Positions 155 to 44,260 of a DNA stretch of 64,000 nt are shown piece by piece (position 1 is the stretch's first letter; the number at the start of each line of letters is the position of its first letter). The DNA comes from an uncultured Bdellovibrionales bacterium (GTDB lineage: Bacteria; Patescibacteriota; Minisyncoccia; Moranbacterales; UBA2206), in assembly GCA_964406815.1 (NCBI GenBank), contig CAYOTC010000001.1:70-64069 (forward strand), in the 5' to 3' direction. A program made the translations under genes and the position numbers. A model generated the notes under the pieces. That model had not been told where the DNA came from, made no database searches, and saw only the letters and a list, made by a program, of their open reading frames with translations.

Positions 155-3100
155 ATGAATCTCAAAAAGAAAACCAAATTAGGTTCCAGGTTTAAATTTT
201 ATAAGGGAAGCAGTTTTAGGGCTGGTTCTTTTTTGTTTTCGAAAAAGATAATTCTTGTATTAGCTTTGTTGATTTTATCGGCAGGGTTTCTTAGTTTTGC
301 TGGAAATGCACAAGCAATGGCTGGCGATTTGGATTTGAGTTTTTCTCCCGGAGTATTAAATGGTGCAAATGATTTGATACAATCCACAAATATCCAATCC
401 GACGGAAAAATATTAATCGGGGGATTTTTTACAACATACAATAATTACTCTATGTATTGCTCGTCTCAATTCTGATGGAACGTTGGATACATCTTTCAAC
501 CCTGGCACTGGAGCAAATAATAGTATATATGCCGTTGCTATCCAATCCGACGGAAAAATATTAATCGGAGGATCTTTTTCCTCATATAACGGCACAATAA
601 TAAATCGCATTGCCCGTCTAAATTCTGATGGTTCGCTTGATACATCTTTTAATCCCGGTATCGGCGCAAGTAGCACTATTTATTCTCTTGCCATCCAATC
701 TGATGGAAAAATATTAATTGGAGGAATTTTTTCCTTGTATAACGGTACGACAAGAAATCACATTGCCCGTCTAAATTCTGATGGATCATTAGATACATCC
801 TTTAACCCCGGCACTGGCTCAAATAGCGATATTAAATCTCTTGCCATCCAATCTGATGGAAAAATATTGATTGGAGGATATTTCACCTCATATAACGGGA
901 CTACAAGAAACTATATTGCCCGTCTAAATTCTGATGGATTATTAGATACGTCTTTTGATCCCGGCACTGGTGCAAGTAGTTTTATTTATTCTTTCTTCAT
1001 CCAATCCGATGGAAAAATAATTACTGGCGGAAACTTTACTTTATATAACGGCACGACAAGAAACCACATTGCCCGTCTAAATTCTGATGGTTCGCTTGAT
1101 ACATCCTTTGATCCAGGTACAGGCGCAAATTATGCCGTAAACTCAATTATCGTCCAATCCGATAAGGTGTTAATTGGAGGAGCCTTTACATCATATAATG
1201 GCACGACAAGAAACCACATTGCCCGTCTAAATTCTGATGGTTTACTTGATACATCCTTTGACCCCGGCACTGGCGCAAGTGGCACAATTAATTCCCTTAT
1301 CATCCAATCTGATAGCAAGCTAATTATAGGTGGGAGTTTCGGCTCATATAGTGGTGCATCTATAAATTGCATTGCTCGTCTTGATTCTGATGGAACACTG
1401 GATACTTCCTTTAATGTTAATAGTACAGGAATAAATAGTTATATAAATTCTGCAGTCATTCAATCCGACGGAAAAATATTGATTGGAGGAGCTTTTACGT
1501 CACATAATGGAATCTCTAGAAACCGCATTGCCCGTCTAAATTCTGATGGTTTACTTGATACATCCTTTGACCCCGGCACTGGCGCAAGTGGCACAATTAA
1601 TTCCCTTATCATCCAATCTGACGGGAAAATACTGATTGGTGGATCATTTTCGAACTATAATGGCATATTTAGAAACAGCATTGCTCGTCTCAATTCCGAT
1701 GGTTCACTGGATACATCTTTCAATCTTGGTACTGGTCCAAATAACTATACTCAGTCGATTGCCATTCAATCGGACGGAAAGATAGTTATTGGAGGAGGTT
1801 TTACGACATATAATGGCACAACCAGAAACTATATTGTTCGCCTAAATTCTGATAGATCATTGGATACATCATTTGATCCTGGTGCAGGAGCAAATAATAG
1901 TGTAACTTCTGTTGCTATACAATCTGACAGTAAAATATTAATCGGAGGAGGTTTTACAACATATAATGGTACAACTATAAATCGCATTGCTCGCCTTAAT
2001 TCCGATGGATCATTGGATACATCTTTTAATGTTGGTACGGGAGCGAGCAGTACTGTTCAATCTATTACCATTCAATCCGACGGAAAAGTACTAATAGGAG
2101 GATCTTTTACGTCATATAACGGCACAACTATAAACCGTATCGCTCGTCTAAATTCTGATGGTTCGCTTGATACATCTTTTAATACTGGTACTGGCACAAA
2201 TGCTTCAATTTATTCCATCAACATTCAATCCGACGGAAAAATATTAATCGGAGGAGGTTTTTCATCATATAACGGAACGGCTAGAAATAACATTGCACGG
2301 ATTAATTCTGATGGATCATTAGATAATGATTTTAACCCCGGAGCAGGAGCAAATAACTATGTGGCTTCTATTGCTCTCCAATCCGACGGAAAAGTGATCG
2401 CTGCAGGAGGTTTCAACAGCTATAACGATATTCCTGTCGCATACATCGCCAGAATCAACAATCCTCCGGTTACCACTCCAACTGTTACAACTAATGCGGT
2501 TTCTTCGATTTCATACACCATCGCCACAGGCAACGGAAATCTGACGTCAACCGGAGACGGTTCCACAACTAGATATATCCAATGGGGAATATCCTCCGGA
2601 ACATATACCTCAAGCTGTAACGCCGGAGCGACAACTTCTACCGGAAACTATTCTTGTTCTATGACTAGTCTTACTGCTGGCACGACATATTATGTCCGAG
2701 CTTATGCTACTAATTCCTCCGGAACCGGATACGGAGACGAAATAAGTTTTTCAACAACCGCCATAGCTGTTCCTACGGTAACTACTAATACTGTTACATC
2801 GATAAATTATACTACGGCTACTGGAGGAGGAAATGTCACGGCAACTAATGGCGCTAATCCGACAATCAGAGGAGTTGAATGGGGCACAGCTACTGGCTCT
2901 TACACTAACTCTTGTAATGCTGGAGCAGGAGGAATCGGAGCCTATACTTGCTCTATGACCAGCCTTACTTCCGGAACAACATATTATGTCAGAGCTTTTG
3001 CTACCAACTCCGCTGGAACCGGTTATGGAACAGAAATTAGCTTCAACACTTTATCTGGTTCTCCAACCGTTACTACTAATTCCACCACCAGCATTACTTC

Positions 3101-4373
3101 CATAGGAGCTACTGGCAATGGAAACATCACTAATACCGGAGGCAATAATCCCGAAAGATTTATCCAATGGGGAACAACTTCAGGAATCTATACCAGTGAA
3201 TGTACCGCCGGAACCGGAGGAACTGGAACGTATTCTTGTGCAATGAACAGTCTTACTCCTGAAACTACTTATTACTATCGAGCTAAAGCAACTAACTCAG
3301 GAGGAACCAGTTATGGAGATGAAAGTTCTTTTACTACTATTCCCGAAGGCATAATTATTCCCGATCCAATCCCTCAAGACATGACTGACGCTTACAATGA
3401 AGGATATATATCTATAGGAACCGGAACTCTTAATAGCACTAACCAAGTAACTACAAATCTTGACCTGACTATCACATCCAATAATGGCCAAGCCACTCTT
3501 CCCGTAAACACCCAAATCACCAACACCGACTCAGGCAACATCGATATGTCTCAATTCTCCATCTCTAACGTAACCACCCAGACCAAATCAACAATCTCCA
3601 CCACCAGAGGCTCAATCGAGATCGGTATCCCCAATACTAACTTAACTTTCTCCCAACCGATAGAAATATCAATAAGTGTAGGAACTCAATACAATGGAGA
3701 TATCCTGACTATCCAATCCCGATCCTACAACCAATCAGATTGGACCGATGAAGGCACCTGCACCGTCACCAACGGAATCTGCAGCTTCACTACCACCCAC
3801 GCCACCACCTATACCGTGAACGGAGACGGAACTATTACCGGAGAGACCAACATCAATACCAATCTCCCCATAGAATCAACCATCTCTCTCAGTTGTCCCG
3901 ATTCATTGGATCTAACCTCTATCACCGGCACCGGACAATCAACAATCGATACAAGCAACGAAGCTACCTGCAACATCGCCACCAACAACTCCAACGGCTA
4001 CAAGCTGGAATGGCAAGCTTCCAGTAATAATATGCAAAATTCCAATTCCGATACTATCAGTTCCTATACCCCAATAACTCCCAATGCTCCCGAACCTTGG
4101 CTCATCGACAATACCGCAAGTGAATGGGGAGCCAGACTAAAGAGCACCTCTACCGATAACGATACATCCACTTGGGGATTAAGTGATGGATATGACGGAA
4201 ACTGGTTAAACATAGATAACTCCACTCCATTTGAAATCATAAGAAGAACAGAAGAAACCGACCAATCCGGATCAGATGAAATCATCCAATTCGGAGCGGA
4301 AGTCGGATCAAACAAATTCCAACCTTCTGGAACTTACACTACTACAGTTACTATGACGGCGACGACGTTGTAA
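155..4373 (+). CDS. Giant secreted repeat protein. N-terminal signal peptide, then about 14 tandem ~51-aa repeats (LDTSFNPGTGA..IQSDGKILIGGSF.SYNGT.RN.IARLNSDGS; delta-60/TIGR02608-like from memory), then 3 FN3-like ~97-aa repeats and a T/S/N-rich C-terminal region. The two track ORFs (155..475 and 483..4373) look like one gene split by a frameshift near 440-482.
   Basis: Track ORFs 155..475 (signal peptide MNLKKKTKLGSRF...AGNAQA) and 483..4373. The first repeat unit is cut short (TYNNYSMYCSSQF*) while the other frame continues IARLNSDGTLDTSFNPG, matching the repeat consensus. Nucleotide periodicity 153 nt (about 330..2460) and ~290 nt x3 (about 2470..3345). Confidence 0.6.
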
Positions 4374-12131: not shown

Positions 12132-13970
12132 ATGACTCAAATAAATTTTTTCGCCAAAACTAATTTTAGGAACCAGGAAAGGATTTTCGGAATCAAGGAG
12201 GATGATCGCCGCCGACATATGTATATTATCGGAAAGACCGGTATGGGAAAATCCAACTTGCTGGAGAATATGGCGATTCAGGATATTCGCAATGGCAAAG
12301 GAGTATGCGTTGTTGATCCGCACGGAGAATTTGCGGAAAAGATGCTTCGCGCCATTCCAGCCGAACGGATAAATGATGTGGTTTATTTCAATCCGGCGGA
12401 CGCGGAATTTCCGGTGGCTTTTAATATTTTGGAAGCGGTCGAAGAAGATAAAAAAAACTTGGTCGCTTCCGGAATGATGGGGGTTTTCAAAAAAATCTGG
12501 CCGGACGTGTGGAGTCCGAGGATGGAATATATTCTTAACAACACTATTCTTGCACTTTTGGATTATCCTGGTTCGACGATGCTTGGAGTGAATCGGATGA
12601 TGAGCGATAAAGATTACAGAAAAAGAGTCTATCCGAAAATCAAAGATCCGGTGGTGAAATCTTTTTGGATAAATGAGTTCGACAAATGGGAAGACCGATT
12701 TCGAAAAGAAGCGGTGGCAGCGATCCAAAACAAAGTCGGACAATTCTTGTCCTATACCTTAGTCCGTCATATTATCGGTCAGCCAAAATCGACCATCGAT
12801 ATGCGAGAGATTATGGATAATCAGAAAATCTTGATTGTTAATCTCTCCAAAGGCAGGATCGGGGAAGACGCGATGCGGCTTTTGGGAGGAATGATAATCA
12901 CCAAAATCCAGCTGGCGGCGATGAGTCGGGTGGAAATTACGGAAGAGGAAAGAAAAGATTTCTATCTTTATGTCGACGAATTCCAGAATTTTGCGACGGA
13001 ATCTTTTTCCAACATCCTTTCTGAAGCGAGAAAATATCGCTTGTGTTTGATTTTGGCTCATCAATATATTAATCAGTTGATATTTGACGGAAATTCGACA
13101 GTGCGTGATGCAATTTTTGGAAACGTCGGAACACTCATATCCTTCCGGGTCGGTGCGGAAGACGCGGAACATCTTGAGAAGGAATATGAGCCGGTTTTTA
13201 TGATGAACGACATTGTCAATCTTTCGAAATATAATATTTATCTGAAATTGATGATCGACGGAATTGCCGGTGACGCTTTTTCCGCGACGACGCTTCCGCC
13301 GATTTCCATCGCTGATACGAAAGATAATGAAGAAAAGGCTATTCGGATTTCACGGGAACGGTATGGAAAATCCAGAAAGGAAGTTGAAGATAAGATCGCG
13401 CGTTGGAGCGGTATGGGCGGATATGACGAGCCGGAAGTGATGGTTGATAAAAAATCTTCTGAAGTTGAAATGAAAGACGAATTTGTTCCGGAAATTAACA
13501 ATATCAAAAATGTAAGTATAGTGAAGGAAACTCCCTCAGCTAAACCAGCGGTGGCTGTTTCTGAGAAAAAAATTCCTGCCGTGTCTTCGGAGGCAAAAGA
13601 GGAGAAGGTGATGTATGAAGCGACTTGCGATACCTGCGAAGAAAAGATAATGGTGCCGTTCAAGCCGGACAAATCTCGGCCGACTTTCTGCCGGGAGTGT
13701 CTTAAGGATTACCAGCGTCTACGGGCGAGAAAGCAGGAAGAGATGCAGCAAACTGCGAGAAAGAATTATCCTCCGAAAATATCAAACAGCAATCCTAAGG
13801 CTGAAGAAAATGATTATCAGCCGGGCGTTGTTGTTCCGAAAGACAAACCGATGTCCCTTTCTCAGATGTCGCATATCGCGCCGAAAAAATTCAAGTCGCC
13901 AAAAAGAAATCCCAATATCGATTTGGGAGGGCTAAGAGATTTAATAAATAAGAGTCGGAAAGAAAATTAA
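12132..13970 (+). CDS. FtsK/HerA/TraD-superfamily P-loop ATPase (DUF87/AAA_10-like) with a C-terminal CxxC...CxxC zinc ribbon and a basic tail.
   Basis: Walker A IIGKTGMGKSNLL. DPHGEF motif typical of HerA/DUF87 ATPases. Walker B LYVDEFQNF. C-terminal CDTCEEK...FCRECL. Confidence 0.55.
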   Translation: MTQINFFAKTNFRNQERIFGIKEDDRRRHMYIIGKTGMGKSNLLENMAIQDIRNGKGVCVVDPHGEFAEKMLRAIPAERINDVVYFNPADAEFPVAFNILEAVEEDKKNLVASGMMGVFKKIWPDVWSPRMEYILNNTILALLDYPGSTMLGVNRMMSDKDYRKRVYPKIKDPVVKSFWINEFDKWEDRFRKEAVAAIQNKVGQFLSYTLVRHIIGQPKSTIDMREIMDNQKILIVNLSKGRIGEDAMRLLGGMIITKIQLAAMSRVEITEEERKDFYLYVDEFQNFATESFSNILSEARKYRLCLILAHQYINQLIFDGNSTVRDAIFGNVGTLISFRVGAEDAEHLEKEYEPVFMMNDIVNLSKYNIYLKLMIDGIAGDAFSATTLPPISIADTKDNEEKAIRISRERYGKSRKEVEDKIARWSGMGGYDEPEVMVDKKSSEVEMKDEFVPEINNIKNVSIVKETPSAKPAVAVSEKKIPAVSSEAKEEKVMYEATCDTCEEKIMVPFKPDKSRPTFCRECLKDYQRLRARKQEEMQQTARKNYPPKISNSNPKAEENDYQPGVVVPKDKPMSLSQMSHIAPKKFKSPKRNPNIDLGGLRDLINKSRKEN

Positions 13971-23456: not shown

Positions 23457-25511
23457 ATGAGTCATCAAACTTTTTTTATCGACATTGACGAAGAAATAAC
23501 TTCGATTGCGGAACGTATTCGCAAGGCGGAAAACAAAGAAGTCATTCTGGTTGTCCCCAAGAGAGCGCTTCTTATCCAAAGTATCGTTAATCTCAAGCTT
23601 CTTCAAAAAGAGGCAAAAAATCTTAAAAAGAAACTCAGTATAGTTACGCAAGATAAGCTCGGTAAAATGTTGATAGAGAAGGTCGGTATAGAATTAAGGC
23701 AGAAATTGGAAGATGATGAAGAAGCAATATCGGATAATCCTTCTGATATTAACAATAAAGAAAATATAACAAAAGAAAACGTGGAAGACTTAAAAATAAC
23801 AAAAATAAAAAAACGTTCAAAAAAAATGGGATCAGAAAATTTCTTTGATGATTCCGCCAATGAAACTATTAAGGATAATGAAAAGGATAGTGAAAAAGAC
23901 AAAAAGATCTTGCCGGTTATTGAAAATGACTGGAAAGAAGTGTCTTCTCAAGGTTTGGAAGATATGGAAAAAGATGGCTCCGAGGAGAAAATTATTAATC
24001 GAGAACTGGTTGTTGATATAGCGTCGGATATTAAGAAAAAACGTCCAACGAGCATGGATGTTTCCGTCCGGCGCAAAAAGGACAAACCTGTCGAGACCAT
24101 AAAAAGCGAGGGAGAATTAGAAATAAATTCTCAACCGGAATCTTCATTTTCTAGAATTGAAAGAGTTTCCAATATTTCAAGAGAGAGAATTATTCCAGCT
24201 GATTTTTCCTCAGAGGATATCGAAGAGGAAGAGCCCACAGTTTCCAATCGGGATGATAAGTTGGAGAATTTCTTTTCCGGGATGAAAAAAAATGAAGAAG
24301 ATGAATCGGAAAATATTTCCAATGGAAAGAAAGCTGGAAATTTAGGGAAAATTGTTAAAATGATTTTTGTTATTATTCTTATTCTTGGAATAGGCGCACT
24401 CGGTTATGTCGCTTATATTTTTGTTCCAAAAGCTACAATAACCATTGCTACTAAAAATGAACAAAAATCGGGAGAAATAGAGGCAATAGGCGATGTTCAG
24501 TTATCGCAGCTGGATTATTCCAGAAGGGCTGTTCCGGCCAAATTGGTTAAAATTGAAGATGAAGTTTCCAAAAGCTACAATTCAACCGGAAGCAAATCGG
24601 TATCAAACAAAAAAGCTCGAGGAATAATAACGATATATAACGAATATAGTTCTGCTTCTCAGCCACTGGTCGCCACGACGCGCTTTTTGAGCGAAGATAA
24701 TAAACTTTTCCGGCTTGTTAAACAGACTACTGTTCCCGGAATGACTGTTGAAAATGGAGTTTCAAAGCCGGGTTCGATTGAAGCGGAAGTTGTGGCGGAT
24801 GAATCCGGAGAAAGCTTCAATATCGGTCCTGCGAAATTTACTATCCCGGGATTTAAAGATAGCGGAACGGAAAAATATTCCAAATTCTATGCCAAATCGA
24901 CTTCTTCCATGACTGGTGGTGGAAATGGAAATGAGGAGATGACTTCAATTTCTGATCATGATATTGCTAATGCTAAAATGGATATCAATAACACTATTCA
25001 AAATTCTATCAAGGAAAAACTTAAATTGGCGGCCGGTAGCGGATTTATAATCCCAGACGATGCTTTCGATATTAAAGAACCGACATATAAGATTTCCAAT
25101 TCTCTAGGCGAAGTGGTTAAAAATTTCGAAGTCACTGCTAATGCTTCCGCTCAAGCGATTGCCTTTTCGGAAAGTGATCTTAGGAAATTAGCTAGTTCGA
25201 TAATTGCAAAATCAGGAAGTGGAAAATCGGACATTGATTCAAAAAATATAACCTTAGAATATGGAAAATCTACGCCTGATTTCACGCTCGGAAAAATTGA
25301 TATTCGCGCCCATGCCGAGAGCAGTTTTAAAAGAAGTATCGATATTGATAATTTTAAAAAAGGGCTTTTGGGAAAAAATAACGAAGAATTAGAGGCTTAT
25401 ATAAGGAATTATTCTGAAATAGAAAAGGCTGAAATAAGCTATTCTCCGCAGTTTTTCAACAACCGTGTGCCGATATATGAAAGTCGGGTAAATGTGGTAC
25501 TTGACAAATAA
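23457..25511 (+). CDS. Hypothetical bitopic membrane protein. N-terminal cytoplasmic domain, long acidic low-complexity linker, one TM (about residue 300), large extracytoplasmic domain.
   Basis: TM IVKMIFVIILILGIGALGYVAYIFV. D/E/K-rich linker. No known motif. Confidence 0.4.
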   Translation: MSHQTFFIDIDEEITSIAERIRKAENKEVILVVPKRALLIQSIVNLKLLQKEAKNLKKKLSIVTQDKLGKMLIEKVGIELRQKLEDDEEAISDNPSDINNKENITKENVEDLKITKIKKRSKKMGSENFFDDSANETIKDNEKDSEKDKKILPVIENDWKEVSSQGLEDMEKDGSEEKIINRELVVDIASDIKKKRPTSMDVSVRRKKDKPVETIKSEGELEINSQPESSFSRIERVSNISRERIIPADFSSEDIEEEEPTVSNRDDKLENFFSGMKKNEEDESENISNGKKAGNLGKIVKMIFVIILILGIGALGYVAYIFVPKATITIATKNEQKSGEIEAIGDVQLSQLDYSRRAVPAKLVKIEDEVSKSYNSTGSKSVSNKKARGIITIYNEYSSASQPLVATTRFLSEDNKLFRLVKQTTVPGMTVENGVSKPGSIEAEVVADESGESFNIGPAKFTIPGFKDSGTEKYSKFYAKSTSSMTGGGNGNEEMTSISDHDIANAKMDINNTIQNSIKEKLKLAAGSGFIIPDDAFDIKEPTYKISNSLGEVVKNFEVTANASAQAIAFSESDLRKLASSIIAKSGSGKSDIDSKNITLEYGKSTPDFTLGKIDIRAHAESSFKRSIDIDNFKKGLLGKNNEELEAYIRNYSEIEKAEISYSPQFFNNRVPIYESRVNVVLDK

Positions 25512-35915: not shown

Positions 35916-36071
35916 ATGACTAGAGAAAATCTGGTGAAGATGAGATGTGAAGTTTGTAAGAGAACGAATTATTTCACTTCAAAAAACAAGAAAAAACTTA
36001 AGGAAAAACTGGAACTTAAGAAATATTGCCTGAAATGCAAGAAGCATACCGCGCACAAAGAGGTGAAATAA
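35916..36071 (+). CDS. rpmG: Ribosomal protein L33 (51 aa; below the ORF-track cutoff).
   Basis: Manual translation [52 protein letters not shown]33 signature Y.T.KNK...KLEL.KYC..C.KH..HKE.K. Confidence 0.8.
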
Positions 36072-36194: not shown

Positions 36195-36443
36195 ATGTAT
36201 TATGTATATTTGCTAAAAAGTCGTAAAGATCAGGGATATTATATAGGGTTTTCAGAAAATATTGATTTTCGATTTCAACAACATTGTAACGGATTGGTTG
36301 TTTCCACAAAAAATAGAAGGCTTCTGGATTTGATTTATTTTGAATCATATTCATCAAAAGAGTTGGCACAAGAAAGGGAGAAGAATCTTAAAAAATTCGG
36401 ATCGGCCTACAGCGGACTTTTGAAAAGATTGTGCGAAAAATAA
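36195..36443 (+). CDS. GIY-YIG nuclease-family small protein (82 aa).
   Basis: MYYVYLLKSRKDQGYYIGFSENIDFRFQQHCNG matches the GIY...YIG...R..H...N core of the GIY-YIG superfamily. Confidence 0.65.
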   Translation: MYYVYLLKSRKDQGYYIGFSENIDFRFQQHCNGLVVSTKNRRLLDLIYFESYSSKELAQEREKNLKKFGSAYSGLLKRLCEK

Positions 36444-37550: not shown

Positions 37551-38165
37551 ATGGGCAGGAGCTCAAGTAGTCGTAATCGCAGGTTTATTGATGATGGCGA
37601 CGGATATATGCGGACAGATTATGCTGATTCATCAAAAAAATCTGACGATTCGAATATATTCTATTCTGCAATGACGGAAGGTGGCGGTATTTATGTTGTA
37701 AGCAATGGTCATCAGACAAAGGATATTTTCCAGGCGCTTTCTAATGGGTTCGGTCATTTTATAGCCATTCAGGATTGGAATTATGAAAACGATCATCCGA
37801 ATTTTACTCCGATAATTTCATCTTCTTGTATGCTTATACTTGGAGATGAAGGCACGGATTGTTTCGTTGATATATCCATTATTAAAAAATCCCGATTCGG
37901 AACCGCCGGTTCTGAAAGACAGCTTTTTAACTATGCTGATTTTATTCCCGGATTAGGATATTGCATCACAACATATCAATGTGATGGAAACCCGTTGTCG
38001 TCATTTGTAGGCGAGCCATATCTTTTGCCACTTGTCGGTTCGGCCGAACAAGCTGCGCAAAATATTTGGAACATTTTGAATGAGGCCAATCGAGTGGCTA
38101 TTGCGATAAAATCAATCAGTTTGAAAAATGGAGAAAGTTCCATTTTTATAATCAATAAGTATTGA
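37551..38165 (+). CDS. Hypothetical protein. Probably the C-terminal 204 aa of a longer product starting at ATG 37419 and containing an in-frame TGA at 37506-37508. There is a faint, memory-based resemblance to archaeal-type IMP cyclohydrolase PurO (VVSNGHQT).
   Basis: Same reading frame from 37419 (strong SD aaaGGGAGGaaagacagaATG) through TGA and into 37551. ATG 37551 has no SD. Confidence 0.45.
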   Translation: MGRSSSSRNRRFIDDGDGYMRTDYADSSKKSDDSNIFYSAMTEGGGIYVVSNGHQTKDIFQALSNGFGHFIAIQDWNYENDHPNFTPIISSSCMLILGDEGTDCFVDISIIKKSRFGTAGSERQLFNYADFIPGLGYCITTYQCDGNPLSSFVGEPYLLPLVGSAEQAAQNIWNILNEANRVAIAIKSISLKNGESSIFIINKY

Positions 38166-38291: not shown

Positions 38292-40592
38292 ATGTCTAAG
38301 CATGAATATTCAAAAGAAGTTTGTGATAAGCTTTTTAAGATAGCTAATAATCCGATTTTAAAAATAGGTTATCGGCGCACTCGTTATGAATCCGGAGATA
38401 AACTAAATGTTGAAATTGAGAGTGTTTTTCCAGCGGTTAGGGGGCTGGCAATTTTTGGGGTTGAAAAATTTATAGGCGGAGGTTTCGCGGGACAAGTTTA
38501 TCGCTGTCGATTGGAAAAATTGGAAATTTCAGGAGAAAAATATATTAAGGAACTTGAATTGGGTAAGTTATACGCGATAAAAATAAATGTTCCACCTTCC
38601 GGATTTTCTTTATGGTTTAGAAATGTTATCTATTGGATTGCCTTTCAGGGACCTTTTGGCGCCCAGCATAATTTAGGCGCTTGCAGATCAGGACTTCTTT
38701 TGCAAAAACTTATCCGTCGCGGAGCAAAATTAAAATTCGGGAGAGAAACTGCCGTTAAGGATGCGATAGCGTCTTTTTATGATCCGCAAATTGGTTCTTA
38801 TGGTGAAATAACAGAGTGGATTGAAGGTCGGATGTGGCTTCTTGAAACTGACTGGGAAATGAAAGGTCGTAAGGAGTGGAAAACAATTCAACTCGATCAG
38901 ACAGGTAGCCCGGAATATATTGCTAAGAGACGTTTTATGTCGGAAATGAAAAATCTTCTTCATGAAATGGGTGCAATTGAGCTTGCAAGACAATATGAAT
39001 GGTGGACGATGAAGAGTCAAACCAACTCTATAAAACGCACGGATATTTTGGATTCTTTCGGTCCTGGTAATGGCCTCTGCGCGATTGATTTTCGCTCAGG
39101 ATTGGCTCTTTTGCCATTTTTTCCAATGAGTCCTGTTGATTTCAAATTGATTTTTGAAGGATTAGTTCGAGGATCAATCGTTCAATTTGACCGTTGTGAT
39201 ACACGTAAAATGCGTGAATTTTTTGAAAAAAATTATTCTAATTTTTCCGATCTTCAGCCGGCAATTGAAGAATTCTTCAGACAAAATGAATTTTATAGAA
39301 GATCTGTTCCTGATATTGCTCATCAAGGAACGAGACTATTTTACGATTCAGGACTCAGAAATGATGTTAAAAATGGTCTTATTGGTGGTTATTTTTCAAA
39401 AAATATTATTGATAATAATTTTTTTGAAAGTTTGAAAAATGATAAATTTAGATTTTTTGTTTTTTATCTTCTTGGTATTTTTCCTATAGTAGGGAAATTT
39501 ATCAGGAAAATTTGGGGCAATCGTATTTATCGGGAACATTTTCTGAAGATATTTTCATCTTCTAGCTATATAAATATTTTTCTTAAATCTCATGTTGCTG
39601 GAAGACTGATTGATTGGTATCGCGCAGGAAGAATTGATGAAAGGCATATCGAATTTCTTTTAAGATTTCCTTTTTTCTTTACCGTTGAAAGAATTATGTT
39701 GGGTTTTCTTCCTTCTTCCTTACATATTATTTTTATAAGGCCTCTAAAAATATGGCACAAAATTAGAAATTGGCTTATCTTTATTAAGAAATTTATTAAT
39801 ATTTCTGAATTTCGTGAAAAATGGTTTCTTAATGAAATAGAACTTGGCAAAAGAGATGGAATGATTACGGAAAAAGAATTTTTAAAACTTAAAAATTCAA
39901 TCAGAGATCCTTTTGTTGTAAACTACCTCAGATGTCTCGGGATTCACTTTTCATCGGTTATAATAACCAGGCTTGTTGGGATTTCAGCTGGATTATTTTT
40001 GTCTGCCTGGGTTCTTTTTGATGGTCACTCTTGGGCCGAATCATTGACAGTTTTTGGCCTCACTTTGATATTTTTTCAGTTGATTCCAATTTCTCCAGGG
40101 TCGTTGTTTCGTGGGGGATTTGTCATATATATGATGATAAAAGAGAAGAATATCAAAAATTATATAATAGCTGCTCCGGTTTCTTTTTTGAAATATGTTG
40201 GATATCTGGCGTTTCCTCTTCAGATGGTGGCTTCTTATCCACACCTGGCGCGATTTATGGCGAGCCGATGGTCTACTAATATAGCTCATCATATTCCGGT
40301 TTTTGGCGAGAAGGGAGCGCTTCTGGAACATTGGGTTTTTGATATTTTCTTTAATTATCCTCAGAAAATTTTCAGATGGTTGAAATTCCGCATACATTTT
40401 GTGCTTGATGGATGGATGATTTTCGGTTTTGGAATTATAACTTCGCTATTTTATTTTTGGCCACTGAAAATTTTTGATCCAAAGATTTATATAAACATCA
40501 TCCTTTTTTTAATAGTTATTTTTATTTTTCCAAGAATAGTTTTTTATCCAATAATTAAAAAAAGAATTGAAGAGGAAAATCCAGTTCGCTAA
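38292..40592 (+). CDS. Fusion protein: N-terminal atypical protein-kinase-like domain (ABC1/UbiB-like, divergent) plus a C-terminal polytopic membrane domain (8 or more predicted TM helices).
   Basis: Gly-rich loop GGGFAGQVYRC with ...YAIKI (VAIK-like). DSFGPGNG...CAIDFRSG resembles the HADPHPGN...IDFG catalytic/DFG segments of UbiB-family kinases. Hydrophobic C-terminal half. Confidence 0.45.
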   Translation: MSKHEYSKEVCDKLFKIANNPILKIGYRRTRYESGDKLNVEIESVFPAVRGLAIFGVEKFIGGGFAGQVYRCRLEKLEISGEKYIKELELGKLYAIKINVPPSGFSLWFRNVIYWIAFQGPFGAQHNLGACRSGLLLQKLIRRGAKLKFGRETAVKDAIASFYDPQIGSYGEITEWIEGRMWLLETDWEMKGRKEWKTIQLDQTGSPEYIAKRRFMSEMKNLLHEMGAIELARQYEWWTMKSQTNSIKRTDILDSFGPGNGLCAIDFRSGLALLPFFPMSPVDFKLIFEGLVRGSIVQFDRCDTRKMREFFEKNYSNFSDLQPAIEEFFRQNEFYRRSVPDIAHQGTRLFYDSGLRNDVKNGLIGGYFSKNIIDNNFFESLKNDKFRFFVFYLLGIFPIVGKFIRKIWGNRIYREHFLKIFSSSSYINIFLKSHVAGRLIDWYRAGRIDERHIEFLLRFPFFFTVERIMLGFLPSSLHIIFIRPLKIWHKIRNWLIFIKKFINISEFREKWFLNEIELGKRDGMITEKEFLKLKNSIRDPFVVNYLRCLGIHFSSVIITRLVGISAGLFLSAWVLFDGHSWAESLTVFGLTLIFFQLIPISPGSLFRGGFVIYMMIKEKNIKNYIIAAPVSFLKYVGYLAFPLQMVASYPHLARFMASRWSTNIAHHIPVFGEKGALLEHWVFDIFFNYPQKIFRWLKFRIHFVLDGWMIFGFGIITSLFYFWPLKIFDPKIYINIILFLIVIFIFPRIVFYPIIKKRIEEENPVR

Positions 40593-40804
40593 TACTTTAT
40601 TAATCATTGATTTTTAGTTTTTGAAAATATCTAAAGTTTTATAATTTTGGGCGATTTGCAGCTAGCTGCAAATCGCTCGTTTATTTATCCGAGAAAATTG
40701 ACAAATAAGGAAAATTGATATAGTATGCAATGTTGTTATTTGACAACAAAATAAAGCCAAAAAGTGGCTTAAAATTAACCTAAAAAACGAAAGGAGCGAG
40801 GATT

Positions 40805-41995
40805 ATGGAAAAGATCGAAAGATTTTTATCAGATTATTCCTGGCTTCTTAAGTCGGGGATATGGCTGGCGCTTGTCCTTTGGGCGGCACAGTTCAGTTGG
40901 GTAATTTCTGAGATTTATAAAGAGGAGAGCTGGAAGGTTGAAAGGAAACTCGAATTGGAAGAAAAATTTTCCATAGAGTATCACAAAATTTATAAAAGAT
41001 TACTGAAGGAAGCTAAAGCTAAGGGAGAGTTTTATGGTCCCAAGGATTACTTTGATGACTATAAGGAAATAAAAATCCTGCAGAATGAAATCGGAATCGA
41101 ATATGATTCTGAACCGTTTATGCTTTCAGATATTGGGGAATTGAATTTGCTGATGAGGGGAAATATAGGAGAAGGCAGAAAATACTCTTGGGATGATGTT
41201 TCAAGCGAATCTAGAAAACTTCATGAATGGTTGAATCGTGGCGGAGCAGCAGGGGATGAATTTTATGCCGATTTGGATAAATTACCCTGGAGTTATAAAC
41301 TTGGAAAAATTTGGAGTTGGTTCTCTTCTTTGTATTGCCGAGGATTTTTTCTGGTGATATTTTTGTATCTTATCAGGATGTCTGAACGGGAAGGAGTTCT
41401 AAGAATATTTTTTTCTGAAAAGAAAAGGTTCTTCCTTGCGATTATTCTTTGGCCGGTAATGGTCTTTAAATATCCCTTTAATATTTTTAGGGAAATAATT
41501 ACTGAAGCTGAATACCGGAGAAGAAAAGAAAAACTCTTCTCTTTCCTCAGTGGTGAAGAAAAAAGACTGATTCGGGAAGTTTCAAGAAATTGTTTATTCA
41601 AAAAGCAGCAATTTGGTTTCTTTGAATTAAAGCCAGTCCATTCTTTTGCGGGAGCTTTAGTTGTAACTTTGTTTTTTGCAGTATTGCCTTATTCGAACAA
41701 GGTGGAAGCCAGGCCTCTTTATGATTGCAATCAAATTTCTGTTTCTCATGAGGAATTCAGTGATCATCTCGCAAGGATGGAAATTGATGAAGATGATGAA
41801 TTGTCATCTTCCTTCGGAGGATTTTCAGTGGATTGTTTAGTAGGAACATTTATTCAGGAATATTTTCCGCTAGTTGCAAGGTTCTTCTGTTTAATGCGGA
41901 AGTTTCATTTGCAGGAAGTCTTCCGAAAAATTGCACATATCCCGCTTTATGGCTGTTTAAATTTAGTGTCTAATTATTATGAATGCACAATTTAA
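40805..41995 (+). CDS. Hypothetical membrane protein.
   Basis: TM segments (GIWLALVLWAAQFSWVI; FFLVIFLYLI; FLAIILWPVMVF; ALVVTLFFAVL). No motif. Confidence 0.35.
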   Translation: MEKIERFLSDYSWLLKSGIWLALVLWAAQFSWVISEIYKEESWKVERKLELEEKFSIEYHKIYKRLLKEAKAKGEFYGPKDYFDDYKEIKILQNEIGIEYDSEPFMLSDIGELNLLMRGNIGEGRKYSWDDVSSESRKLHEWLNRGGAAGDEFYADLDKLPWSYKLGKIWSWFSSLYCRGFFLVIFLYLIRMSEREGVLRIFFSEKKRFFLAIILWPVMVFKYPFNIFREIITEAEYRRRKEKLFSFLSGEEKRLIREVSRNCLFKKQQFGFFELKPVHSFAGALVVTLFFAVLPYSNKVEARPLYDCNQISVSHEEFSDHLARMEIDEDDELSSSFGGFSVDCLVGTFIQEYFPLVARFFCLMRKFHLQEVFRKIAHIPLYGCLNLVSNYYECTI

Positions 41996-42041
41996 ATAGC
42001 CGAAGAAAAAAAGCTTTTCTCCGGCATTAAAGGAGAAAAAT

Positions 42042-42686
42042 ATGCGCAAATTAATTATTGTAGTAGTATTATTATTAACTATTATTATAACTGTCTCAGT
42101 TTCAGCAGAAGACAAAAAAATTTCCACCACTATCAACCTGAAAAATGACTGGGGTGATGCTTCAGGAAAAACGGTTGATACCCAAAGAGCCTTCATCTTC
42201 TGGAACTATAAGGATGTTGGCGGAGGCGGGATAGATATGGCTATAACACGAAGGAAGGATTATTTTCAAGTCGATCCGTTTCTGACATTCAATCGAGGAT
42301 CGTGGTATTTCGTTGGCGGAGCGTCCGTTGATAATTTTTCCCAGTATATCCAAGGCGGTTTCTGGTATATGAATTCTATTGGAAAAACATTTGTTTTTGC
42401 TGATATCAGAAATTATTTTGCCACCGGGGGAAATGCCAAAGATTATGTTGAAGGATTTTTTGAAGTAACGCATCCAATTGGAAAACGTTTTTTTATGGGA
42501 GCCGATTTGGATTATGTTCTTTGGTGGGAGGGAAGTCACAAGTGGCTTCTTGTAGGGCCGATCATTGGCATGAAGTTCAATAAGAATATTTCATTTTATA
42601 CGAGAATTTCTCGCGAGTGGAATATTATTGATGATAAATCCGACGGTTCTAACCGGTTCCGTTTAGGGATGACTATCTCGTTTTAA
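42042..42686 (+). CDS. Secreted beta-rich protein with a signal peptide and a C-terminal aromatic residue (OMP-barrel-like signature).
   Basis: Signal peptide MRKLIIVVVLLLTIIITVSVSA. Alternating hydrophobic pattern. Terminal ...RFRLGMTISF. Confidence 0.4.
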   Translation: MRKLIIVVVLLLTIIITVSVSAEDKKISTTINLKNDWGDASGKTVDTQRAFIFWNYKDVGGGGIDMAITRRKDYFQVDPFLTFNRGSWYFVGGASVDNFSQYIQGGFWYMNSIGKTFVFADIRNYFATGGNAKDYVEGFFEVTHPIGKRFFMGADLDYVLWWEGSHKWLLVGPIIGMKFNKNISFYTRISREWNIIDDKSDGSNRFRLGMTISF

Positions 42687-42793
42687 AAACGACGGGCAAC
42701 TTGTCATTAGACAAGTTGCCCGTTTTTGTATCTTTAAAAACAAAAAAATTGGCGCCGGATTTGCCATTTGGTGTATAATGAAAGCGATAAATA

Positions 42794-43714
42794 ATGATAA
42801 AAAATATGCTCGAAAAAATGGAATTTACAAAGAAAGCTGAAAAGCCTGGCGAAAAATTGGCTCGTTTTATGGAGGATATTTCCCATAAATTAAACAAAGA
42901 GATTTTCGAATATGGTGAAGAAAAGCCTCTTTTGGATAAGAATAACTCTATTAATATGGAGGCGTTCGGATATTCCGATGTCGAAGTTGACAAACAGAAA
43001 GTTTTTAACAAAGATATTGAATGGAGCGGAGCTACTGATCCGGAAATCATGGAGTTCTATGGAGGGAAATATGGAACTGTGAGCACTAGCGATGTAGTTA
43101 GGGAATTTCGCAAAAACAAGGAAAATAATCCCAGCGCCCAATTGGAAAAGGCAATCACGGGACTTTTACATAAAGTTTTAGGATCGGAATTTATGGTTAT
43201 GCGTTCATCGGACTATGATGATTATTTTTACGGAATCGATAACGTGATTGTTAACCGGGAAACTGGAGATGTGATTTGCGCTTTTGATGAGGTTCACGAT
43301 GAGAAAGATGGTAAGCGTCAGTTGAAGAAAATCAAGAAAATAAAAGATGTTGCGGGAAGAGGTGGAGCAACCTTGAAATACGGAATAACTTTTGAAAAAG
43401 ACGAGGTGACCGGAAAAAACAAGCTGGTAAAAAAATCCATCAAAAATATTCCGGTTTTCTATCTTGGACTTTCGAGCAAAGAACTTTCCGGACTTGTTTC
43501 CCGGATGGATTTTTCTTCTGGCAGTGAAGCTAATTCTTTCGAGTTGGAAATATTTGGAAATCTTGTCGAATCATTGAAAGGTCAGATTGGAATTTTGGAA
43601 AAATATGAAATTGAAGAAGGAAAAATCATCCATCATGAAGTTAAGAAAAAACTGGACAAATTCAAGATTTTATTGTCTGAATTGATTGAATCAAGGCTTA
43701 AAAAAGCCGCTTAG
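42794..43714 (+). CDS. Hypothetical protein.
   Basis: ORF only. No motif. Confidence 0.35.
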   Translation: MIKNMLEKMEFTKKAEKPGEKLARFMEDISHKLNKEIFEYGEEKPLLDKNNSINMEAFGYSDVEVDKQKVFNKDIEWSGATDPEIMEFYGGKYGTVSTSDVVREFRKNKENNPSAQLEKAITGLLHKVLGSEFMVMRSSDYDDYFYGIDNVIVNRETGDVICAFDEVHDEKDGKRQLKKIKKIKDVAGRGGATLKYGITFEKDEVTGKNKLVKKSIKNIPVFYLGLSSKELSGLVSRMDFSSGSEANSFELEIFGNLVESLKGQIGILEKYEIEEGKIIHHEVKKKLDKFKILLSELIESRLKKAA

Positions 43715-43867: not shown

Positions 43868-44260
43868 ATGCTGGCAATAAGACTTGCAAGAGTAGGAAAA
43901 AGGAATAAAGCTCAATTCAAAATAACGCTTCAGGAGAAAACAGTTGCTCCTGGGGGACGTCATGTTGAGATTTTGGGGTCATATGACCCTCATTCTAAGC
44001 AGGTAGTTCTCAAAGAAGATAGAATTAAATATTGGATTTCTAAAGGAGCGGAAGTTTCCGATACAGTTAACAATATTTTGGTTGGAAAGCAGGTTATTTC
44101 CGGAGAAAAAATAAAGGTTAAGGTTCCCAAGAAAAAAGTTGAGGAAGTGAAGGAGGAAGCAAAGCCTGAAGGCGAAGTCTTAAAAGAGGAAGCTAAGAAA
44201 GAAGAAAAAATTGAAGAGAAAAAAGAAGAAGTGAAGCCGGAAAAAGAGGATAAGAAATAG
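43868..44260 (+). CDS. rpsP: Ribosomal protein S16 with a K/E-rich C-terminal extension.
   Basis: MLAIRLARVGKRNKAQFKITLQEKTVAPGGRHVEILGSYDP...WISKGAEVSDTV. Confidence 0.85.
   Translation: MLAIRLARVGKRNKAQFKITLQEKTVAPGGRHVEILGSYDPHSKQVVLKEDRIKYWISKGAEVSDTVNNILVGKQVISGEKIKVKVPKKKVEEVKEEAKPEGEVLKEEAKKEEKIEEKKEEVKPEKEDKK

Follow-up and report, generated by a model that had tools for sequence, protein, structure and literature searches.

A stretch of 64,000 nucleotides from contig CAYOTC010000001.1 (hereafter the window) carries a gene, P1 (38292..40592, + strand), whose 766-residue product joins a kinase-fold N-terminal head to a membrane domain. P1 is the first of four co-directional open reading frames (ORFs), P1 to P4, found exactly at the coordinates that the initial annotation of the window had given them. 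Taking the evidence jointly, we consider it fairly probable that the four genes form three independent units, that P1 is an atypical ATP-using membrane enzyme and that this copy of the gene was acquired horizontally. All four ORFs were accepted as real genes because each has homologues elsewhere. No model of Pfam, NCBIfam, PHROGs or PADLOC was matched by P1, P2 or P3, and P4 produced only sub-threshold noise in these libraries.

The P1 family and its two conserved halves

Protein clusters with P1 homologues number more than 2,050. The best 120 of those listed are almost all full length (approximately 745-820 residues) and 45-59% identical; all are recorded as "hypothetical" and none carries a Pfam domain. 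Relatives occur in at least 551 species, as counted in a scan of one genome per species, and the titles of their records name more than ten phyla, including Kiritimatiellota, Verrucomicrobiota, Lentisphaerae/Victivallales, Planctomycetota, Acidobacteriota (with Aminicenantes), KSB1, Zixibacteria, Hydrogenedentota and Deltaproteobacteria. The bulk of the family belongs to the Planctomycetes-Verrucomicrobia-Chlamydiae (PVC) group, Planctomycetota, Acidobacteriota and KSB1. Identity between members is 41-61% along the full length, and an alignment of 123 sequences contains 150 columns conserved at 95% or above. No Pfam or NCBIfam model covers the family. Sequence searches of the Protein Data Bank (PDB), whether with P1 as a single sequence or with a 51-sequence profile, gave no match, and the Pfam families Pkinase, ABC1, RIO1, APH and Kdo were not matched, even weakly, by any of the 51 members. 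A PilZ match (E 0.003) in one of these members was not recovered upon re-scanning eight extended members and was dismissed as due to chance. The literature returned nothing for the locus tag of the Pontiella desulfatans homologue, PDESU_03775, and every source that names a member of the family calls it a "hypothetical protein". P1 and its relatives constitute a well-defined new family inside the kinase-like superfamily, widespread, strongly constrained and architecturally distinctive. As a stand-alone protein of about 750 residues with some 150 near-invariant positions across PVC, Planctomycetota, Acidobacteriota, KSB1 and other bacteria, it represents well-defined functional dark matter.

The initial annotation had proposed a protein-kinase-like domain at the N-terminus of P1, and structure prediction bore this out. 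An AlphaFold2 model built with 51 homologues scored 83.8 for predicted local distance difference (pLDDT) and 0.80 for predicted template modelling (pTM), and the top 50 matches obtained when the model was compared to the PDB with Foldseek were all protein kinases. The head so defined spans residues 1-300 (38292..39191, +) and is presumably cytoplasmic because it has no signal peptide. All three motifs on which the proposal had been built were located: GGGFAGQVY at residues 62-70, YAIKI at 94-98 and DSFGPGNG...AIDFRSG at 253-270. The first corresponds to the glycine-rich loop (38475..38501, +), in which G62, G64, A66, G67, Q68, V69 and Y70 are invariant among the 123 homologues. The second (38571..38585, +) contains Lys97, the equivalent of the VAIK lysine, which is invariant in all 123 sequences. 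Both lie within predicted beta strands of the model (residues 50-63, 68-79 and 93-98), YAIKI forming part of the last one, which corresponds to beta3.

The third motif was found to combine two segments of different character. Its second part, CAIDFRSG (residues 263-270; 39078..39101, +), is the putative equivalent of the DFG motif, with Asp266 at the metal-binding position; all 123 sequences share D266, F267, R268 and G270. The first part, DSFGPGNG, which had been read as a UbiB-like catalytic segment, sits in a variable insert, TDILDSFGPGNG (residues 250-261; 39039..39074, +), the columns of which are gapped or deleted in Pontiella-type homologues. That reading was thus abandoned. The conserved loop lies further upstream, in the catalytic-loop-like segment ARQYEWWTMKSQTN (residues 232-245; 38985..39026, +), which in its family form reads ARQYEWWTMKSQxN and in which K241, S242, Q243 and N245 are invariant. 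Position 240, five residues before Asn245, is where the catalytic Asp of the HRD motif would be expected. P1 has Met at this position, and across the 123 sequences the four commonest residues are Met (69), Cys (33), Leu (15) and Ala (5), and Asp or Glu never occurs; the HRD Asp is therefore absent throughout the alignment. Nor was any invariant acidic residue found in the alphaC region (helices 104-118 and 128-149); a partner for Lys97 may come from elsewhere, with E172, E175 or E236 as candidates. The assignment of the catalytic loop, Asn245 and Asp266 was made from the order of the secondary-structure elements, as opposed to a residue-level superposition. On this assignment, the putative nucleotide- and metal-binding residues (Gly loop, Lys97, Asn245 and Asp266) are all retained.

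The region that follows the head (residues 301-540; 39192..39911, +) is all-helical and rich in Lys and Arg. Secondary-structure assignment of the model with DSSP, combined with hydropathy, identified within it two hydrophobic helix pairs (383-405 and 460-482), each broken at conserved Gly or Pro residues. With halves too short for crossing a bilayer, these pairs may be re-entrant interfacial hairpins. The remainder of the protein (residues 541-766; 39912..40592, +) is predicted to be a helical, polytopic membrane domain, which contributes about six more hydrophobic helices. The family-averaged hydropathy profile of P1 contains 12 overlapping windows that merge into about eight segments. The "8 or more" transmembrane (TM) helices announced in the initial annotation are therefore uncertain and represent an upper estimate, as two of the segments are read as the non-spanning helix pairs. 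Three motifs of the membrane domain, QxxPxSPGSxxRG (596-608), GYLAFPxQ (637-644) and PVFGExGALxEH...N (669-688), are as invariant in the 123 sequences as the residues of the kinase head. None of the listed structure matches and none of the sequence searches covered the membrane part.

The sequence of this particular copy suggests a foreign origin. The next-best protein after P1 itself is only 59% identical, with nothing between 100% and 59% among 5.8 billion proteins, whereas P2 and P3 have relatives that are 80% identical. In a neighbour-joining tree, as well as in the identity matrix, the P1 of the window falls within the PVC group on a long branch, with a Kiritimatiellales subclade (58-61% identity) as its sister; the identity drops to 52% for Pontiella and to 43-49% for other phyla. 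Of the 150 columns conserved at 95% or above, this copy departs from the conserved residue in 12, against a median of 1, and it retains every fully invariant residue. In G+C content, P1 (0.343) agrees with the window (0.365). Because the copy branches inside Kiritimatiellota sequences, it probably reached its host by horizontal transfer, the donor being Kiritimatiellales-like; provided that this host belongs to the candidate phyla radiation (CPR), an old event with fast evolution thereafter is the most economical account. That the host is CPR-like, as contemplated in the initial annotation, is plausible: P2 has nine homologues, and the only named one comes from Ca. Moranbacteria, in the Patescibacteria group at NCBI. 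Also encoded in the window is a type IV coupling protein that resembles TrwB/VirD4 and whose tail is a zinc finger (12132-13970, +). This is consistent with the monoderm-type type IV secretion systems reported to be common in Patescibacteria (PMC12102498). Past this gene, at 14-16 kb, the G+C content dips to 0.275.

Proposed reaction and competing explanations

As judged from its pattern of conservation, P1 is most likely a membrane enzyme, atypical yet catalytically active, that uses ATP. Two considerations guided this choice. First, both halves of the protein are invariant, the ligands in the head as much as the membrane domain, which speaks for an active enzyme and against a pseudokinase in decay. 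Second, the loss of the catalytic Asp disfavours ordinary protein phosphorylation, while the combination of invariant ligands, missing Asp and the precedent of SelO favours an atypical ATP-dependent transferase. SelO illustrates that such a residue pattern can mean changed chemistry as opposed to inactivity (PMC12599244). We postulate that the cytoplasmic head would bind Mg-ATP and that phosphate, or a nucleotidyl group as in the AMPylating pseudokinase SelO, would be moved onto a substrate held by the membrane domain. The most plausible substrate, a lipid or a polyprenyl-phosphate-type envelope intermediate, would be bound at the invariant PxSPGSxxRG and PVFGExG motifs at helix N-termini. In its most specific form, the proposal is a tentative one, which we hold possible at less than even chance: P1 would define a new class of membrane-integrated kinase-fold enzymes using ATP without the catalytic Asp, for instance in a nucleotidyl transfer of the SelO kind or in a phosphotransfer that involves K241-S242-Q243; their target, a lipid or polyprenyl-phosphate-linked envelope intermediate, would be held in a membrane domain not described before, and the gene would have crossed into a CPR bacterium. 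In any event, the family is a tangible lead to a new membrane-associated reaction, which may belong to the envelope lipid metabolism of anaerobic sediment bacteria.

Several observations weigh against this interpretation. The model is least confident precisely at the catalytic loop and in the segment past the DFG equivalent, with pLDDT values below 50 at residues 239-242 and 269-280. The gene neighbourhoods of P1 homologues, examined at 81 loci, offer no functional hint. As to the origin of the gene, the evidence comes from a single neighbour-joining tree without support values, in which the branch of the window is long, and the assignment of the host to CPR is itself drawn from the relatives of P2 and P3, the loci of P4 and the TrwB-like coupling protein. 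Finally, the absence of both the catalytic Asp and the alphaC Glu is equally expected of a purely regulatory, ATP-binding pseudokinase.

The last point introduces the main rival explanation, in which the head would be a non-catalytic, nucleotide-binding pseudokinase and the membrane domain a transporter or flippase for which it serves as gate or scaffold, in the manner of MviN/MurJ. The two missing residues fit this scheme, and a pseudokinase fused to a polytopic envelope-lipid flippase has a precedent in the mycobacterial MviN (MurJ) protein (PMC12599244). However, the pseudokinase of MviN has lost the ability to bind ATP and Mg (PMC12599244), whereas in P1 the nucleotide and metal ligands are invariant together with K241-S242-Q243. 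In addition, the order of the domains in P1 is the reverse of that in MviN, and neither MurJ/MOP nor any other transporter family was recognized by Pfam in the 51 members or among the listed structure matches. We consider the gated transporter an unlikely account of P1.

Two further explanations are less likely than the transferase. One of them, improbable in our judgement, would make P1 a Hanks-type receptor Ser/Thr kinase, with a sensing membrane domain and protein targets. The Pfam Pkinase model (PF00069) was matched by none of the 51 members, and the catalytic HRD Asp and an invariant acidic residue in the alphaC region are both missing. Furthermore, the membrane domain shows the invariance of an active site, unlike the sensor domains of receptor kinases, which are variable, and the lack of any conserved neighbour means that there is no FHA or PP2C partner. 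The other explanation, which we hold to be very improbable, makes P1 a divergent UbiB/ABC1 (COQ8-like) atypical kinase involved in quinone or lipid homeostasis, in line with the resemblance noted in the initial annotation. The P1 motifs ...AGQVY and YA[IV]KI..P do resemble the ...GQVH and VAVKV..P motifs of UbiB; moreover, hhalign pairs K97 with the beta3 Lys of UbiB, and membrane association is common to both. Yet the ABC1 model of Pfam (PF03109) was matched at E<=10 by 0 of the 51 members, and P1 on its own gave no match to it at E<=1; NCBIfam gave no UbiB/ABC1 match for P1; and hhalign against E. coli UbiB returned a probability of 0.2% over 13 aligned columns. P1 has no KxGQ motif, its look-alike of the HxDxxPGN motif (DSFGPGNG) belongs to the dispensable insert, and the catalytic Asp that it lacks is kept in UbiB. 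The proposed resemblance to UbiB/ABC1 in particular was thus not upheld.

Three independent units and their surroundings

The initial annotation had treated P1 to P4 as a four-gene cluster, possibly an envelope-associated signalling or lipid-related module, to be abandoned if the genes did not co-occur in other genomes. They do not. A tblastn search with P2, P3, P4 and other neighbours from the window against 81 P1 loci (up to 10 kb on each side) gave zero matches, and clustering of the neighbouring ORFs at these loci yielded no family present in more than 10 of them. The neighbour families that do recur, at few loci, reflect synteny with housekeeping genes within clades. Genes on the opposite strand, or gaps of at least 250 bp, delimit most P1 homologues, and in Pontiella desulfatans the homologue stands alone. 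Reciprocally, P1 and P4 are absent from the five loci carrying P2-P3 pairs (L083-L087), and P1, P2 and P3 are absent from the vicinity of P4 relatives at 36 metagenomic loci, in a scan made with eight closer sequences, where no conserved neighbour was detected either.

Signals in the intergenic regions point in the same direction. P1 is followed by a putative intrinsic terminator (40648..40679, +), a GC-rich hairpin with a 14-pair stem, 13 pairs of which form in the RNA fold, and a T-rich tail. Its predicted stability is -21.4 kcal/mol (z -5.1), and 0 of 200 shuffled sequences were as stable. Between this hairpin and P2 lies a promoter-like sequence, TTGACA-17-TAGTAT (40698..40726, +), identified solely by its 10/12 match to the consensus, and a GGAG ribosome-binding site precedes P2 at about 40793. 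A second hairpin, predicted to act as a strong bidirectional terminator, follows P3 (42691..42724; 15-bp stem, -26.8 kcal/mol, z -9.1). Because of the predicted terminators after P1 and P3, and the promoter-like site before P2, the units are P1, P2-P3 and P4; P1 itself is predicted to be monocistronic, with its own terminator. The spacers, which had been described as short, measure 212, 46 and 107 bp, and two of the three contain the strong terminator hairpins. An operon of all four genes is a very improbable account of the locus: the genes are adjacent and co-directional both in the window and in a contig from a second sample (L082), and all products but one are secreted or reside in the membrane, but the absence of co-occurrence at 81 P1, 5 P2-P3 and 36 P4 loci, the terminators, the promoter-like site and the 212-bp P1-P2 spacer all speak against it, and the L082 contig, being 100% identical to the window, most likely derives from the same organism and is not independent evidence. 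For genome annotation, this corrects a tempting but wrong operon call.

P2 (40805..41995, +) and P3 (42042..42686, +) form a gene pair of their own, which was met in CPR-type contigs only. P2, the 5' gene, encodes a 396-residue membrane protein with three strong hydrophobic segments, a conserved N-terminal hydrophobic segment and the conserved motifs YSWLLK, EAExRR and IxHxP. P3, the 3' gene, encodes a secreted, beta-rich protein of 214 residues with Phe at its C-terminus. Homologues of P3 were retrieved as two clusters and, in addition, at five tblastn loci, which stand for three distinct homologues; a P3-like ORF (29-31% identity) lies directly 3' of every P2 homologue examined (L083-L087). 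The initial description of P2 as a membrane protein, of P3 as having a signal peptide and a terminal Phe, and of P4 as soluble was borne out: the N-terminus of P3 is hydrophobic and signal-like, and P4 is devoid of hydrophobic segments. A signal peptide is present in all four aligned P3 homologues, whose C-termini read W[SA]F or ISF.

These properties raised the question of whether P3 might be a small outer-membrane-type beta-barrel of 8-12 strands, the size of OmpW or KdgM. Such a protein in a CPR bacterium would imply an outer-membrane-like layer, or a porin that inserts into the membrane of a host. The Sec-type signal peptide speaks in its favour, as do the composition (9-12% Gly and approximately 15-19% aromatic residues), a conserved C-terminal ...[LV]x[MLV]x[IW][SA]F that resembles the beta-signal of outer-membrane proteins (OMPs) in five of five aligned sequences, and an all-beta, low-confidence model. 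Against it, this AlphaFold2 model (two sequences, pLDDT 33) is unusable, no OMP family of Pfam was matched (one member gave DUF6733 at E=0.05, a family for which nothing was found in the literature) and the weak, non-significant profile matches in the PDB were to soluble, lipocalin-like barrels. The count of segments with alternating hydrophobicity did not exceed that in shuffled sequences (p 0.17-0.5), in a home-made dyad test that is not discriminating. No gene of the beta-barrel assembly machinery (BAM) was seen within the 64-kb window, and Patescibacteria have been proposed to have no outer membrane (PMC12102498). On the whole, an outer-membrane barrel appears quite doubtful.

P4 (42794..43714, +; 306 residues) is the third unit, a soluble protein from an unrelated family that occurs on its own. 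The family, made of proteins of about 300 residues, comprises 677 cluster representatives at E<=1e-3 and has no Pfam or PDB match. Two library matches of P4, to LIC13305 (E 0.07) and Csx1 (E 0.006), were set aside as sub-threshold noise. The conserved pattern, E...DDY..G.D...TG....DE...K, corresponds to invariant residues E118...D142-D143-Y...D149...G158...D165-E...K179, laid out as strand-turn-strand, and is reminiscent of a PD-(D/E)xK-like nuclease core. Both the P2-P3 pair and the P4 family lack a Pfam model and were seen in CPR-type contigs.

The four genes had been placed between rpmG and rpsP. Pfam confirmed the two flanking genes (rpmG, 35916-36071; rpsP, 43868-44260), but genes for a GIY-YIG protein, a tRNA, a GNAT acetyltransferase and an IMP-cyclohydrolase-like protein intervene between rpmG and P1. 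The last of these, of the PurO type (PF07826, E 6.5e-22; 37551-38165, +), lies directly upstream of P1, with no terminator predicted in the gap. The GIY-YIG protein, a small stand-alone one (36195-36443, +), is encoded between rpmG and the tRNA gene. In other contigs (L083, 13425-13709; L084, 9073-9357; L091, 9278-9481; L104, 7458-7655), GIY-YIG ORFs related to it are again present within a few kb of the P2-P3 pair or of P4 relatives, suggesting a mobile element common in these genomes.

Elsewhere in the window, the LOOT RNA family of Rfam (RF03000) has a full-length match at 49252-49374 (+). This match, with 83 bits (gathering score 46), runs into the start of an ORF (49352-49954) and lies in the part of the window that is lowest in G+C (0.29-0.30); the literature on LOOT RNA yielded a mention in a reference list and nothing on taxonomy. 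A large serine recombinase of 514 residues (51345-52889, +) adjoins a low-GC stretch at approximately 46-52 kb. The 3' end of its ORF overlaps a tRNA gene on the opposite strand (52803-52874, -), possibly the boundary of an integrated element whose att site is the tRNA. Two other ORFs deserve mention: one encodes a 1,296-residue protein with 12 DUF5122 beta-propeller repeats (E 3.5e-191; 483-4373, +), and the other a 684-residue protein (23457-25511, +) with no Pfam match at E<=1e-5.

Relation to known kinase-fold proteins

Among the closest known systems, UbiB/ABC1/COQ8 proteins share with P1 a membrane-associated kinase fold, a short Gly loop (GQV[HY]), the beta3 pattern [VA]xK[VI]..P and C-terminal hydrophobic segments. 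UbiB has one or two C-terminal TM helices and no conserved polytopic domain. The likeness goes no further, as Pfam, hhalign, the KxGQ motif and the ranking of structural neighbours all fail to link P1 to UbiB, in which the catalytic Asp is retained. The alpha-kinases (TRPM7/ChaK and MHCK-A) and the RIO kinases also count among the closest systems.

MviN resembles P1 in carrying, within a single polypeptide, a kinase-fold domain devoid of catalytic residues and a polytopic membrane part, which in MviN is envelope-related (PMC12599244). The two proteins differ in that the pseudokinase of MviN is C-terminal and its membrane part is a recognizable MOP flippase, whereas the head of P1 is N-terminal, its ligands are kept and its membrane part matches no known family.

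SelO/YdiU and P1 have in common a kinase-like fold in which the beta3 Lys, the catalytic-loop Asn and the DFG Asp are kept and the HRD Asp is absent. Where the HRD loop would be, SelO reads HGVMNTDN, and it AMPylates its targets (PMC12599244, Table 1 and text); the corresponding sequence in the P1 family is WTMKSQ[PT]N. The two proteins have no detectable sequence relationship, and SelO, a soluble protein, has no counterpart to the polytopic membrane domain of P1. Flipped ATP binding and AMP transfer, which characterize SelO, are hypothetical for P1. The pattern found in P1, with ATP and metal ligands kept, the catalytic Asp missing and both halves of the protein invariant, is the signature behind the new chemistries of SelO, SidJ and NiRAN.

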